The notes beneath the pieces were generated by a model that searched no databases, had not been told where the DNA came from, and was given only the letters and a program-made list of their open reading frames with translations. From Escherichia phage RB49, in the sequence record NC_005066.1: a stretch of 64,000 nt of DNA. The stretch is one strand, 5' to 3'. Shown in pieces: positions 55,137 through 60,169 of the stretch (the stretch's first letter is position 1; each line of letters starts with the position of its first letter). The position numbers and the translations under genes are program-made.

Positions 55137-55328
55137 TTAGATTCCGGCGATCCTGCATAGAGTTCTTGTATTAGCGCCAATAAGGATAGCATTAACGACA
55201 ACCATTCCCCAATCAACCCACGGATTATTATAAATGCTAAATCCGTTTGCTAGGCCAAATACAAGCATTCCGGTACACATACTCAGAGCAATAATCAACA
55301 TCATGGTAAAACCAAATGCAAATCTCAT
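55137..55328 (-). CDS. small membrane protein
   Basis: 63 aa, two predicted TM helices. Confidence 0.4.
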   Translation of the reverse strand: MRFAFGFTMMLIIALSMCTGMLVFGLANGFSIYNNPWVDWGMVVVNAILIGANTRTLCRIAGI

Positions 55329-55329
55329 A

Positions 55330-55551
55330 TTATTTTCCTTTTCTCTGTTTACGTTTATAAAAGTAATACATTACCTCATCACGTCCGGTGATCCAACATG
55401 CTAGGGCGGTAAACAGGTTTACAATTCCCAACACACCTACTGACGCGGCGCTGTCAACAGACATAGGAACAGTAAAGGCCATAGCTAACATAGCAACGCC
55501 ACAAATGACATTAAGCACCATTATAATAAGACCGAAGAAAACCATTGTCAA
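55330..55551 (-). CDS. small membrane protein
   Basis: 73 aa, two predicted TM helices. Confidence 0.4.
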   Translation of the reverse strand: MTMVFFGLIIMVLNVICGVAMLAMAFTVPMSVDSAASVGVLGIVNLFTALACWITGRDEVMYYFYKRKQRKGK

Positions 55552-55766
55552 TCCTCACAAATAAGAAAACCAACAATCACGCCAGTGATAAGACATGATG
55601 CACCGCTAATAAGACAACCAGCGCCAAGTGATTCCCACCAGATCAGAGAAGCGACAATAACGAAAATTCCCCAGACTACCGCAATCACAACATAGGCAAG
55701 GGTCGCCCAAAACATATATTTGTTCATAATAAACCACATTCGCCAAACAAATAAGAAAAAAGCCAT
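55548..55766 (-). CDS. small membrane protein
   Basis: 72 aa, two predicted TM helices. Confidence 0.4.
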   Translation of the reverse strand: MAFFLFVWRMWFIMNKYMFWATLAYVVIAVVWGIFVIVASLIWWESLGAGCLISGASCLITGVIVGFLICED

Positions 55767-55912
55767 ATCAACAGAAACGAGGCAATTGATCCGGCAAACA
55801 AAATGATATTAGAGAATCCACCGTCTACCCAGGCAACAAAACAGAATACGCTAGTATAGAAGCATAAACCCATTACAAAGCATACTATAAGCAACCATAG
55901 ATAAAACGTCAT
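55724..55912 (-). CDS. small membrane protein
   Basis: 62 aa, two predicted TM helices. Confidence 0.4.
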   Translation of the reverse strand: MTFYLWLLIVCFVMGLCFYTSVFCFVAWVDGGFSNIILFAGSIASFLLIWLFSYLFGECGLL

Positions 55913-55973
55913 AGAAAGTCCTCCAGCGAGATAAATTAGTGAGGGTAGTGGAATGTACTACCCGCTTTGTTAA

Positions 55974-56132
55974 TCAACGCAGAGCTTCTTCTAGCGAGAT
56001 CCCAAACCATCCACAAACAACGCCCATACAGACAGCTACAAGAAGATTCATTCTCTCTTTAGGGATCATTGCAATCATAACAACAACCATACAGAAAGCC
56101 ATTACCATTGAAGTTAACATTTGTTCAACCAT
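55974..56132 (-). CDS. small membrane protein (52 aa, below cutoff)
   Basis: hand-translated MVEQMLTSMVMAFCMVVVMIAMIPKE...; AAAGGTG SD. Confidence 0.35.
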   Translation of the reverse strand: MVEQMLTSMVMAFCMVVVMIAMIPKERMNLLVAVCMGVVCGWFGISLEEALR

Positions 56133-56134
56133 TA

Positions 56135-56473
56135 TCACACCTTTAAAGTCATAGACGCATAAACATTAATGCCAGGCCAGTTAGGATCGCAATTATACTC
56201 AACATCCCACAAATAAAGCGGTTTAGATGTATCAGCCAAGTTTTTAAAATCTTCTACCCACATTTCAAGGCTATATGATGGATAAACTAGGCTATCATAT
56301 CCGCCGTAACGTTGGCCTACTGGTCGGTCAGTAAAAACTACCTCAAGATCCGGTAATTCTTTTTCAAGGATAACCGCCAGCGCATAAATAAGACGGTCTT
56401 CCTTGTTACGCTGCCGAAGGACCGTTGTCAGTTGGTTTTTCTGGTTCACTAGCAAGCACCTCCACATTTTCAC
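56135..56473 (-). CDS. hypothetical protein
   Basis: 112 aa ORF; start uncertain (overlaps upstream ORF). Confidence 0.4.
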   Translation of the reverse strand: MKMWRCLLVNQKNQLTTVLRQRNKEDRLIYALAVILEKELPDLEVVFTDRPVGQRYGGYDSLVYPSYSLEMWVEDFKNLADTSKPLYLWDVEYNCDPNWPGINVYASMTLKV

Positions 56474-56726
56474 AGAATGAAATTTTCACAGACACAATTT
56501 TACCATAAGTGAAGAATGAATATACATTATCGATATATTCAACGTCACCTACAATCACATCAAACTGCGGATCAGCAACCGCCGCAACATATTCTACCAG
56601 TTCATCAAGAGAATGCAACTTAATTTCATCAATTCGGCTGTATTTGGTTGCATCTTTGATTTTAAAACCACGTTCTTTCAGCTTATCAATTAGAATTTCA
56701 CGCGGAGTTTCAAACAGTTTGCTCAT
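56406..56726 (-). CDS. hypothetical protein
   Basis: 106 aa; GAGGATTATATT-ATG initiation region. Confidence 0.45.
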   Translation of the reverse strand: MSKLFETPREILIDKLKERGFKIKDATKYSRIDEIKLHSLDELVEYVAAVADPQFDVIVGDVEYIDNVYSFFTYGKIVSVKISFCENVEVLASEPEKPTDNGPSAA

Positions 56727-56747
56727 AATATAATCCTCACATTAAAT

Positions 56748-56948
56748 CTAAAATTTGTTAACGACGAATTGCATAATTAGACTAATCACAAACATTGCAA
56801 ACCAAGTATAAATGCAACAGATAAAAGCTACATACAATTCAATCTGGTCAGAGAATACACCGGGTAAAAGCATTAGCAAAATAACAACAGTAAAGACGCT
56901 AGCGATACCCGCAACAAAACCAATATCATTTTTACTAATCGTCATCAA
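56748..56948 (-). CDS. small membrane protein
   Basis: 66 aa, hydrophobic. Confidence 0.4.
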   Translation of the reverse strand: MMTISKNDIGFVAGIASVFTVVILLMLLPGVFSDQIELYVAFICCIYTWFAMFVISLIMQFVVNKF

Positions 56949-57154
56949 GTCACCGTTTTGTAAAGAAACACAATAAAATCCAAGACAAGAAAGACAGTGT
57001 AAATGATCATCGTCAAGACAGTAAACACTGTCAGATTTTCATCGTTAGTTAATTCATAGTCGCCCATCCATACAATCACAAGATATAGCATTGAAAGAAT
57101 GGAAGCGCCTACGAAGTTGAAAAACATATTCTTGAGCGTCATATTAACAACCAT
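56945..57154 (-). CDS. small membrane protein
   Basis: 69 aa, hydrophobic. Confidence 0.4.
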   Translation of the reverse strand: MVVNMTLKNMFFNFVGASILSMLYLVIVWMGDYELTNDENLTVFTVLTMIIYTVFLVLDFIVFLYKTVT

Positions 57155-58610: not shown

Positions 58611-58700
58611 AATTTGATTCTCCGTTTAAGAAAGTGTGTTTCGTTTCGATGGGTGTATTATGCTATAGGCAGGATCTGGTGTCAACAACTTTTTTAAAAA
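58611..58700 (-). promoter_or_regulatory. early promoter cassette (TTGACA-N17-CATAAT)
   Basis: conserved leader CACCCATCGAAACGAAACAC then GGAGAATCAAA-ATG. Confidence 0.55.
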
Positions 58701-58710
58701 AATTTTAGGC

Positions 58711-58740
58711 AATAAAAAAGCCACTCCGAAGAGTGGCTTA
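58711..58740 (-). terminator. rho-independent terminator
   Basis: hairpin AAGCCACTC-TTCG-GAGTGGCTT followed by U-run on minus strand. Confidence 0.6.
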
Positions 58741-58745
58741 TAGGG

Positions 58746-58895
58746 AAGGTAGCGAATCTTCCTTGTCTCCAACCTGCTAGCGGCCTAGCAAGTGAATGCT
58801 TTAGCGTACCGGATCGCCCACATACGCTGTAATAAATGCGGCTAGGTGACGTCCAAATCATTCTAACCGCGCTGTCTTTAGTTCACTATTATTTA
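58746..58895 (-). ncRNA. candidate small structured RNA (not a tRNA)
   Basis: ~150 nt ORF-poor segment between a TATAAATA-type late-promoter match (plus-strand tatttata near 58899-58906) and the terminator; local hairpins GGAAG..CTTCC and TGCTAG..CTAGCA. Confidence 0.2.
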
Positions 58896-59107
58896 TATCG
58901 CTTTCTCTCGCGACGTTTTTGGTCTTCTTCCTTGATAGAGTTAAATGCATCAAAAAGACACATGGCACTAATAATAAACATAACCGTATTTTCTACGATA
59001 TCCCACGGCTTCGCATCAGTACAGATCCCCCAAACGGTAAGAAATGCAAATAAGGCAGAAGAGATCACAAGCATGATACTTGCTAAGATATAAAAAGTCA
59101 TTTTCAT
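58889..59107 (-). CDS. small membrane protein
   Basis: 72 aa, two hydrophobic helices. Confidence 0.4.
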   Translation of the reverse strand: MKMTFYILASIMLVISSALFAFLTVWGICTDAKPWDIVENTVMFIISAMCLFDAFNSIKEEDQKRRERKRYK

Positions 59108-59298
59108 GGTTTTACCTCAATTCTTCGATATTCATCACACATCCACACAGTAAGCAAGAATCCCAGCACATAAGCAACAAAATACGTTAATGCTTCTTCT
59201 GGTTCGGTGCTATGCGCCATCATCAGACCAGCGAGAAAGGTCTTAACAATTACATTTAAAATAATTAGCCACGCAAATAATTTCATAGTTTGCCCCAT
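59104..59298 (-). CDS. small membrane protein
   Basis: 64 aa, hydrophobic. Confidence 0.4.
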   Translation of the reverse strand: MGQTMKLFAWLIILNVIVKTFLAGLMMAHSTEPEEALTYFVAYVLGFLLTVWMCDEYRRIEVKP

Positions 59299-59522
59299 TT
59301 CGGACGAGTATTTTCAAACTTATACATTACGTAACAATCTCGAATCATCCACGTAACAAGAGCACCAGTCAACACAGACAATACGCAGAAGAAGTAAAAC
59401 GGTCCGGTTGCATTATCAACATGAGCAAGCCAGGTAAAGAAAACACATGCTAAGAATGTAAAGAACATCATAAAGCACAAGAAAGCGAAATATTTTATAC
59501 TACTCATAGCGCCACCATACAA
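59283..59522 (-). CDS. small membrane protein
   Basis: 79 aa, hydrophobic. Confidence 0.4.
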   Translation of the reverse strand: MYGGAMSSIKYFAFLCFMMFFTFLACVFFTWLAHVDNATGPFYFFCVLSVLTGALVTWMIRDCYVMYKFENTRPKWGKL

Positions 59523-59610
59523 CAGATCATAAGAAACCCCAACGCAATAAGAATTGCGTCAAATTTAGTGAACTCCGGTCCACCTATCAACATCATTCGT
59601 TCTATTTCGT

Positions 59611-59853
59611 TCATAGCGTACAAAGCCATTTAAAAGCACCACATAAAGCGAGCAGAATACTAGGTATAAACGAGACCAAAACAAGTTTGCAAAAATCATC
59701 TAAGGTAACACCGGAATAGCTACCTACTGTAACAACACCGATCATCAGACACAGAAAGAAAACAAATGCAATCATAAACAAAGTATTGCTAAACAGTTTA
59801 GTGATCATTAGACACCCCACGACGATCAATTTCAAAAACTTTTTTATCATCAA
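59611..59853 (-). CDS. small membrane protein
   Basis: 80 aa, hydrophobic. Confidence 0.4.
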   Translation of the reverse strand: MMIKKFLKLIVVGCLMITKLFSNTLFMIAFVFFLCLMIGVVTVGSYSGVTLDDFCKLVLVSFIPSILLALCGAFKWLCTL

Positions 59854-60001
59854 CGAAGCATGTCACAACTGCCTCGTTGACTTCCGCAAATTGTTGTGTC
59901 ACCCACTTAAGGTCAGAGCGAAACAATGTTCTATTAATAACAAATGTTTTACCGCTCTTATCCTTACCCATAAATTTTGCTTTACCCATATCCAATTCCA
60001 T
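59798..60001 (-). CDS. hypothetical protein
   Basis: 67 aa ORF; start uncertain. Confidence 0.35.
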   Translation of the reverse strand: MELDMGKAKFMGKDKSGKTFVINRTLFRSDLKWVTQQFAEVNEAVVTCFVDDKKVFEIDRRGVSNDH

Positions 60002-60010
60002 ATTATCACC

Positions 60011-60169
60011 TTATTTGCTAATCGCTAAACCCAATCCGAAGAGAGCACCCGATGCTACAGTATACCCGAAAGTTTCAAAGGCAGTAAAGATATCTAAGCC
60101 ACCAGCTAACAGAGTTGCAGTAAACAGAGTACCAGCTACGAACATAAAAGTTTTACCGATGAATTTCAT
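60011..60169 (-). CDS. small membrane protein (52 aa, below cutoff)
   Basis: hand-translated MKFIGKTFMFVAGTLFTATLLAGGLDIF...; ATG directly after cassette RBS. Confidence 0.35.
   Translation of the reverse strand: MKFIGKTFMFVAGTLFTATLLAGGLDIFTAFETFGYTVASGALFGLGLAISK

Follow-up and report, generated by a model that had tools for sequence, protein, structure and literature searches.

What are the many very small hydrophobic open reading frames (ORFs) beside the endolysin gene of Escherichia phage RB49, and are they related to each other? We addressed this in a 64,000-nucleotide (nt) stretch of record NC_005066.1, hereafter the window, for which a sequence-only reading had listed at least 13 ORFs of 47-80 amino acids (aa) at 55137-60169 and suggested paralog diversification, with possible roles in superinfection exclusion, lysis timing or inhibition of host membrane-bound defence effectors. 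All of the listed ORFs are present where they were placed, all on the minus strand, and their number is 14 rather than 13. We name them m1-m14, with start codons taken from annotated GenBank relatives; they are 36-74 aa long from those starts, or 41-80 aa as longest ORFs, and GenBank already carries them as hypothetical or 'putative membrane' proteins. In our reading, to which we give a probability of roughly 0.6, they encode 14 mutually unrelated, genus-specific, early accessory proteins of the inner membrane, located in a hyperplastic region rich in counter-defence genes.

The genomic setting was defined by comparison with relatives. A megablast search with window positions 54700-60700 returned 57 Krischvirus genomes (RB49, Phi1, JSE, GEC-3S and others) at ~96-97% identity and two short siphophage matches, 59 records in total. 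At least 51 of the Krischvirus genomes align collinearly along the entire query. Judged by these matches, the window is that of a Krischvirus, an RB49/Phi1/JSE-like T4-type coliphage. It is collinear with Phi1 from rIIA onward, and nearly all of its genes lie on the minus strand. The island of small ORFs sits between the M15 endolysin, followed by vs.8, at low coordinates and gp57B/57A/1/3 at high coordinates. By this gene order, the region is the hyperplastic interval of the Krischvirus genome and the counterpart of the T4 'e to 57B' interval. The ORFs had been described as lying downstream of the endolysin, which holds in plus-strand coordinates only; by direction of transcription they lie upstream of it, and the endolysin is transcribed after m1. 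The upstream border of the region is 57B, whose product has two H-x-T/S-x motifs. Inside the array, in an operon of which m14 is the first gene, lies dmd, whose product is 45% identical to T4 Dmd (E = 7e-14). By homology, dmd is a known counter-defence gene embedded among the membrane ORFs, and the island is bracketed by two recognised counter-defence genes, Acb1 and Dmd.

We scored hydropathy on two scales, Kyte-Doolittle (19-residue window, ≥1.6) and the Hessa biological-scale sum, and both predict one or two transmembrane (TM) segments in every m ORF (14/14). None of 11 interspersed or flanking genes has a predicted TM segment (endolysin, s1, s2, LPD25, 55.3-like, s5, s6, s7, dmd, s8 and 57B). 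For m2, an AlphaFold2 model from seven family sequences shows a helix-turn-helix hairpin (helices 2-25 and 30-69; mean predicted local distance difference test score 69). The hydrophobic helices claimed for these ORFs were thereby borne out. The membrane character is also strongly localized. In Phi1, 14 of the 22 small coding sequences inside the interval have a TM-like segment, against 6 of 105 outside it (Fisher p = 5e-9); the outside set comprises the small annotated coding sequences of 0-50 kb and 100-164 kb, three other ORFan-rich regions included, and one of its six TM-like members is the i-spanin PseT.3. In fact, the other hyperplastic regions of Phi1 are almost without small TM ORFs. 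In a crude gene call on the 64-kb window, 12 of the 16 small ORFs called with a TM segment fell in the 55-60 kb bin; two of the 16 are antisense artefacts on the plus strand, and m5, m9 and m14 went undetected. Elsewhere in the window just two clear small membrane ORFs occur, both on the minus strand: 29883-30041, encoding 52 aa with an N-terminal TM segment followed by a CxxC...CxxC zinc-ribbon-like tail, and 49355-49648, encoding 97 aa with two TM segments (Phi1 ORF088) near tk and rI.

The junctions between the m ORFs are tight. Overlaps of 4 nt and ATGA type join m4/m3, m10/m9, m11/m10, m12/m11 and m13/m12, m7 and m6 overlap by 1 nt, and three further neighbouring pairs are 1-2 nt apart, while dmd and m13 overlap by 11 nt at the dmd stop. 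With six overlapping m pairs, the earlier description of mostly overlapping stop and start codons was accurate. Shine-Dalgarno motifs or coupled starts are recognisable at many m starts, for example at m1, m4, m5, m9 and m14. These features support the view that m1-m14 are predicted small membrane proteins encoded in tandem, translationally coupled runs.

Promoters and terminators place the runs in a putative early context. Sigma70 promoters of the form TTGACA-17-CATAAT or TACAAT, with 11 of 12 consensus matches, were found at 60680, 58685, 58416 and 57732. Three copies of a 55-nt repeat (57683-57737, 58636-58690 and 60631-60685), each with a promoter, form a family of the PeSL type, known from the hyperplastic regions of RB49 and phi1 as a strong early promoter with a stem-loop, together with terminators flanking nonessential ORFans (PMC2839356). 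Strong intrinsic terminators lie on the minus strand at 60718-60698, 58739-58718 and 53609-53585, and GEC-3S has promoters and terminators annotated at the same sites. From the positions of these elements, we infer two early operons with sigma70-type promoters. The first would run from a promoter at ~60230 through m14-dmd-m13-m12-m11-m10-m9 to a terminator near 58739, and the second from the PeSL promoter at ~57732 through LPD25-m8-m7-m6-s2-s1-m5-m4-m3-m2-m1-endolysin and onward. A motif scan of the region found no exact late promoter upstream of the m ORFs; the only exact T4-late-type TATAAATA in the region, at 58890-58897, lies across the m9 3' end and is directed away from the m genes.

The ORFs have the marks of real genes. 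They are intact in ten GenBank relatives, with pooled ratios of nonsynonymous to synonymous polymorphism (pN/pS) of 0.07-0.63; the exceptions are m7, which four of the ten lack and three others carry in truncated form, and m4, deleted in ELT4. Divergent metagenome relatives, on contigs of 170-175 kb reached via the m2 protein search, carry all 14 ORFs in the same order and at nearly equal lengths. Against these relatives the ratio of nonsynonymous to synonymous substitution rates (dN/dS) is 0.11-0.77 at dS up to ~1.1. It is below 1 in every m gene and 0.1-0.3 for most, with the highest values (0.6-0.77) in m4, m6, m13 and m14. Among individual members, m2 is the most conserved (pN/pS 0.07), with invariant residues in its second TM segment (TM2) and tail, and m13 the least constrained (pN/pS 0.63, dN/dS ~0.5); dN/dS is 0.16-0.22 for m1 (pN/pS 0.25) and 0.12-0.29 at dS ≤ 1.1 for m12. 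GC content at third codon positions (GC3) is 0.38, the same as in soluble neighbours and core genes, so the m ORFs appear to be long-resident. The intact frames, dN/dS below 1 and GC3 together indicate coding genes under purifying selection and not chance ORFs on a T-rich strand. We regard the m ORFs as probably real, translated-looking genes under weak to moderate purifying selection.

This evidence bears on the idea that the ORFs are proto-genes, young and nearly neutral products of T-rich sequence that arose de novo and have little or no function. They are indeed strict ORFans of very small size, T makes up 47% of their second codon positions, some have the high dN/dS given above, and losses (m7, m4 and the 1.7-kb deletion described below) are frequent. 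However, all 14 frames remain uninterrupted and unchanged in length in relatives at dS of 0.3-1.1, selection is purifying throughout, many starts are coupled or have a Shine-Dalgarno motif, and GC3 is that of core genes; we therefore consider proto-genes of this kind improbable. A foreign origin was rejected on the same GC3 value.

Although constrained, the membrane ORFs evolve 5-10 times faster than their soluble neighbours. Their dN is 0.02-0.58, against 0-0.06 (dN/dS 0-0.15) for most soluble neighbours, of which the outliers are s4 (dN 0.18), s5 (dN 0.14) and dmd (dN/dS up to 0.37). In the metagenome relatives, the products of s1, s2, LPD25, s7, s8 and 57B are 89-100% identical (mostly 95-100%) and those of the membrane ORFs 33-97% (mostly 65-90%). 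The genes s1 and s2, which lie inside the array, serve as slow-evolving internal controls: they are 89-100% identical at the aa level, with dN/dS of 0.00-0.08 against two of these contigs (L014 and L016) and at most 0.18 against a third (L017).

The tandem layout had suggested paralog diversification, and this did not survive comparison of the sequences. The 14 ORFs fall, with full-length matches, into 14 different unannotated, high-numbered PHROGs, with no cross-match between m ORFs at E ≤ 0.01. An all-against-all blastp of the m ORFs gave nothing significant (best E = 0.055 in a 20-sequence database), and among the 91 pairs of the 14 family alignments compared by hhalign the top probability was 11.9%, for m2-m11 over 48 columns. 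The sole homologous pair is allelic, consisting of m6 and an ORF of JSE-type phages that is 34% identical over its full length. The copy-number variation expected among relatives was not seen either; the number of genes is nearly constant, with all 14 in 41 of 57 records and 12 in a further 11, and the changes are losses or allele swaps. On these comparisons, m1-m14 appear mutually unrelated, with no detectable paralogs.

It could still be argued that one or a few ancestral small membrane genes were duplicated in tandem and diverged beyond recognition. The similar sizes and the recurring architecture of two TM segments and a charged tail (m2, m9, m10 and m11) would fit such a history, as would the weak m2-m11 pairing and the speed at which small TM proteins diverge, since m6 alleles are only 33-35% identical between genomes that are otherwise 96-99% identical. 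Partial tandem duplications also occur in individual isolates. JK32 (L009, 1966 onward) has a duplication of window 55799-56060, and Skers (L006, 3001-3189) has a duplication of window ~56014-56171 that yields a truncated second m5. Skers also has a ~230-nt insertion at window ~57690, with an extra 47-aa ORF beside a PeSL. All of these may be real events or assembly artefacts. However, the PHROG library is built by remote-homology clustering and still separates all 14, profile comparison did no better, and gene number and order are nearly fixed over 57 genomes and the divergent metagenome relatives, with no copy-number expansion. A duplicative origin is thus quite unlikely. Duplication apparently can happen in the array but seems not to have recognisably produced the resident set.

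Homology searches point to a narrow distribution. A concatenated tblastn search of 50,697 phage genomes with the 14 ORFs (E ≤ 0.01) matched 57 Krischvirus records only. All 14 lie together and collinear in 41 of them, 11 are of JSE type with 12-13 matching pieces, ELT4 is without m4, and four are split by record ends or duplications; the same search matched no m ORF to any T4 ORF. Searches of 5.8 billion proteins with m2, m9 and m14 returned close relatives only, the m2 family profile, run exhaustively with HMMER against 1.84 billion representatives, recovered only its own cluster, and Pfam at E ≤ 1 gave only sub-threshold matches of TM composition. The m ORFs thus appear to be restricted to Krischvirus-like phages.

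Within the genus, the set is altered by loss and replacement. In genomes that are otherwise nearly identical, m6 exists in allele classes of 33-35%, ~70% and ~100% aa identity to the window, the ~70% class being that of metagenome relatives. JSE-type phages have one ORF in place of m6 and m7, and m7, absent from them, is truncated or frameshifted in W115, ELT4 and JK32. Divergent alleles of m5 occur in JSE, phiS, ELT4 and JK32 (83-84% DNA identity) and in metagenome relatives (65% aa identity), and hypervariable alleles were recorded for m5, m6, m9 and m13. The largest change came to light through a chimeric protein match (P0009) that joins the C-terminal half of m8 to that of m2. This m8::m2 fusion is present on at least three metagenome contigs of ~165 kb, from gut or other sources (among them L020, at 5561-6500, and L021), in the gene order LPD25, m8::m2, then m1 and the endolysin. 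The deletion behind it removed 1.7 kb (window ~55461-57164) at an 8-nt microhomology, so that m3-m7, s1 and s2 are gone and the invariant m2 TM2 and basic tail are kept in frame. With as many as five of them missing from natural variants, the m ORFs are accessory and partly dispensable.

These losses also bear on the possibility that the coupled runs (m13-m9, m8-m6 and m4-m1) encode the subunits of one or two hetero-oligomeric membrane assemblies. The 4-nt ATGA overlaps suggest stoichiometric coupled translation, the membrane genes are co-located here, unlike in the other hyperplastic regions of the genome, and the synteny of the set is kept in divergent relatives. Against this, single members (m4, m7 and m6) are lost, truncated or allele-swapped while their neighbours stay, and a viable-looking lineage is without five members at once. 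Overlapping stop and start codons abound in T4-type genomes and do not point to a complex in particular. We find such an assembly hard to reconcile with the natural variants and give it little credence.

The position of m1-m5 directly upstream of the endolysin on the same strand raises the question of lysis, and one or more of them, in particular the holin-like m2, could be imagined as a holin, pinholin or antiholin for the M15 endolysin. Like the class II holins and pinholins exemplified by S21 of lambdoid phage 21, m2 is ~70 aa long with two TM segments, a basic cytoplasmic C-terminus and an endolysin neighbour. It is also the most conserved member, its TM2 and tail are the part retained in frame by the natural deletion, and sub-threshold Pfam holin matches were obtained for m2 (Phage_holin_3_5, E = 0.18; Phage_holin_3_6, E = 0.96) and m11 (Phage_holin_3_6, E = 0.21). 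However, m2 differs from the class II holins in family-level sequence and in its early, not late, promoter context. No Pfam holin family reached its threshold, the best match (m2 to Phage_holin_3_5) scoring 12.4 bits against a cutoff of 27, and matches at this level are typical of TM composition. The endolysin has neither the signal-anchor-release (SAR) nor the signal sequence that a pinholin partner needs.

Moreover, Phi1 has its lysis genes at other loci, namely the holin gene t (154900-155556), the antiholin gene rI (48088-48390) and the spanin genes PseT.3/PseT.2 (128614-129386; spanin assignment from PMC6139136), so the lysis machinery is accounted for elsewhere. In general, the lysis genes of T4-type phages do not form a cluster (PMC6139136). 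The m proteins are also too short for an i-spanin, and inspection of the 14 sequences found no canonical lipobox (L-[AS]-[GA]-C). With the lysis genes elsewhere and the m ORFs behind sigma70-type early promoters, the suggested role in lysis timing is unlikely; the m ORFs are unlikely to be the holin/spanin system of the phage, and a dedicated lysis cassette for the M15 endolysin has only a slim chance of being correct. One feature near the endolysin start deserves mention in its own right. On the minus strand, 55112-55143 can form a 6-bp stem, TCACTC...GGGTGA, that takes in the endolysin Shine-Dalgarno sequence. Just upstream of it, a late-promoter-like TCTAAATA with one mismatch overlaps the stop codon of m1. 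In T4, gene e transcripts made early by read-through are translationally masked, and translation occurs from late transcripts only; the stem and TCTAAATA resemble this arrangement.

What, then, might 14 unrelated early membrane proteins do? Early promoters, one or two TM segments, accessory status, restriction to the genus, fast evolution, co-transcription with dmd and adjacency to 57B/Acb1 suggest early modulators, and a role at the host envelope, in exclusion or counter-defence, is the most plausible class of function. Early in infection, each m protein would insert into the host inner membrane and act on its own, through helix-helix binding to a membrane target of the host or of an incoming phage. 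One candidate role is superinfection exclusion of the T4 Imm type. Another would be to neutralise abortive-infection or defence effectors that act at the membrane, a role that would be in keeping with the co-transcription with dmd and the neighbouring acb1. We hold exclusion as the specific role only tentatively, and anti-defence as the specific role is, to the same degree, possible but doubtful.

Several observations weigh against our reading of m1-m14 as early, accessory envelope proteins. The TM evidence consists of hydropathy scales and one medium-confidence AlphaFold2 model, and no m ORF has homology to characterised exclusion or anti-defence proteins. Variable sites are equally frequent in TM and non-TM positions (38% and 36%), with the exception of m2 and its invariant TM2 and tail, and no gene of the set has dN/dS above 1; the fast evolution could just mean that TM anchors are under little sequence constraint, without any arms race. 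In addition, a weak match to T4 spackle (Sp) lies outside the island at 12832-13026 on the minus strand (27% identity over 74 aa, E = 0.04). It falls in an ORF021-like gene between genes 61 and 41, the syntenic place of T4 sp, and could represent a divergent domain of Sp type. Imm and Sp were searched for by tblastn only, over ~128 of the ~164 genome kb (the window together with Phi1 100-164 kb). Within that sequence there was no T4 Imm homolog (best E = 7.7) and no match to T4 61.4, and no m ORF matched Pfam Imm_superinfect at E ≤ 1. T4 Imm is nevertheless similar in architecture (83 aa, two TM segments, early, charged C-terminal tail) to m2, m9, m10 and m11, and both are accessory genes of T4-type phages. 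It differs in sequence and in position, T4 imm lying between genes 42 and 43.

The island can also be compared with the syntenic T4 interval from e to 57B, which contains e.2-e.8, tRNA genes, rnaC/rnaD, segB, trna.2-4, ipI and 57B. Both are flanked by 57B/57A/1/3 on one side and by the endolysin and vs.8 on the other, and in both 57B, of the Acb1 family, contributes a counter-defence function. IPI is an anti-restriction factor, and tRNAs counter anticodon nucleases. The T4 interval has some small predicted membrane ORFs (e.2, e.3, e.4 and trna.4), but these are only ~4 and are larger (61-130 aa). It also contains eight tRNA genes and two stable RNAs, whereas the window is without tRNA genes, and the endolysin is an M15 peptidase here and a lysozyme in T4.

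The island belongs to the published class of hyperplastic-region ORFan cassettes, described from RB49 and phi1, of the same phage group, at loci of this type (Arbiol et al. 2010, PMC2839356; Comeau et al. 2014, PMC4122927). Those cassettes are nonessential orphan ORFs behind a sigma70-like early promoter and stem-loop (PMC2839356), a description that fits the island, and relatives vary by insertion, deletion and replacement, as they do here. The island is a special case among them, since the other Phi1 hyperplastic regions have almost no small TM ORFs, and the 1.7-kb deletion used a microhomology in coding sequence and not PeSL recombination. The membrane character of the ORFs is not discussed in these papers; in PMC2839356 the word 'membrane' refers to filtration membranes only. 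Our literature search found nothing specific on the functions of Krischvirus small membrane proteins. Three aspects therefore seem not to have been described in the searchable literature: the concentration of nearly all small membrane ORFs of the genome in one region, their mutual unrelatedness, and their faster evolution than soluble neighbours together with the natural deletion and allele-swap variants. The features of the locus are listed in Table 1.

Table 1. Features of the small membrane ORF island and its borders, in window coordinates.
Feature	Coordinates	Strand	Length (aa)	Description
Endolysin	54719..55108	-		M15 L-alanyl-D-glutamate peptidase; phrog_465, E = 7.5e-69; Pfam Peptidase_M15_4; without TM or SAR domain
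m1	55137-55328	-	63	Strong N-terminal TM (residues 9-27) and weaker second hydrophobic stretch; phrog_15016
m2	55330-55545	-	71	2-TM hairpin with basic C-terminal tail YKRKQRKGK; phrog_15232
m3	55548-55727	-	59	2 TM; phrog_16151; pN/pS 0.24
m4	55724-55912	-	62	2 TM; zero K or R; phrog_19354; pN/pS 0.43
m5	55974-56132	-	52	2 TM; phrog_16035
s1 and s2	56135..56726	-	104 and 106	Two overlapping soluble ORFans inside the array; no TM
m6	56748-56945	-	65	2 TM; hypervariable; phrog_15379
m7	56945-57142	-	65	2 TM; phrog_21837
m8	57144-57326	-	60	Strong TM (residues 35-53) and weaker N-terminal hydrophobic stretch; phrog_16425; pN/pS 0.38
LPD25-domain protein	57335..57661	-	108	Soluble; Pfam PF18840, E = 5e-14; leads the putative m8-to-m1 and endolysin operon
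PeSL-type repeat with sigma70 early promoter	57683..57737	-		TTGACA-17-CATAAT at 57732-57704
Intrinsic terminator	58718..58739	-		Closes the putative m14-dmd-m13...m9 operon; m9-to-s7 intergenic terminators annotated in GEC-3S and Makalu_002
m9	58889-59107	-	72	1-2 TM; highly charged C-tail KEEDQKRRERKRYK; phrog_15168; pN/pS 0.12
m10	59104-59286	-	60	2 TM; charged C-tail; phrog_15717; pN/pS 0.23
m11	59283-59507	-	74	2 TM; basic C-tail; phrog_15290; pN/pS 0.11
m12	59504-59614	-	36	41 aa from upstream ATG at 59629; C-terminal TM anchor; phrog_15282
m13	59611-59808	-	65	2 TM; phrog_17225
dmd	59798..60001	-		Antitoxin against RnlA/LsoA toxins; annotated in relatives; Pfam Dmd
m14	60011-60169	-	52	N-terminal TM, then glycine-rich C-terminal hydrophobic stretch; phrog_16462; pN/pS 0.08
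Sigma70-type promoter upstream of m14	60201..60230	-		TTGACA-18-TAAGAT, 10/12 matches; GEC-3S annotates a promoter at the equivalent site
57B/Acb1-family 2H phosphoesterase (anti-CBASS family)	60725..61189	-		Precomputed Pfam PF23474 Acb1 on orthologs; gp57B annotation in Phi1 and JSE

Two further observations were made within the interval. First, a non-coding element of ~170 nt on the minus strand, at 58712-58885, lies between the m9 stop and the terminator at 58739-58718, with the T4-late-type TATAAATA at 58897-58890 just upstream of it. Its predicted fold has -60 kcal/mol (z = -3.7 against shuffles), and it keeps 92-100% identity in relatives in which the neighbouring m9 shows dS of 0.8-1.1; variation is limited to loops and to one hairpin with a compensatory GC-to-AU change. 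The element could be a small RNA or a structured 3' untranslated region; it matches no Rfam family above threshold and shows no similarity to T4 rnaC/rnaD of the syntenic interval. Second, the small, soluble and early ORFs s5 and s6 (57939-58358) and s7 (58425-58610, DUF7421) have 72-83% DNA identity with T1-like siphophages of the Drexlerviridae (SH6, JMPW2, BECP10, GaoY1-9D and others). This likeness indicates that unrelated coliphage families exchange early-gene cassettes. Within Krischvirus, s6 has two allele classes, at ~80% and ~100% identity.

In summary, the tempting 'paralog family' annotation of this locus is corrected. Small phage membrane proteins are badly under-annotated, and a few of them (T4 Imm, Sp and RI) strongly affect the outcome of infection. 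The 5-kb early locus, in a genus of therapeutic phages (RB49, Phi1, JSE, GEC-3S and others), offers a compact candidate set for exclusion and anti-defence screens. If its members had no measurable phenotype, the locus would be another hyperplastic-region ORFan cluster. A more far-reaching proposal, which we think rather unlikely as a whole, is that the island is a dedicated 'membrane front line', a hotspot with rapid birth and turnover of small TM proteins that may originate de novo in T-rich sequence. Several of the 14 families, co-regulated with dmd and adjacent to acb1, would then each be a new kind of inhibitor of abortive-infection or defence effectors embedded in host membranes, or a new superinfection-exclusion factor. 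If this were true, one locus would hold up to 14 new anti-defence or exclusion families and would provide a natural system for watching the birth of small membrane proteins and their arms-race evolution.

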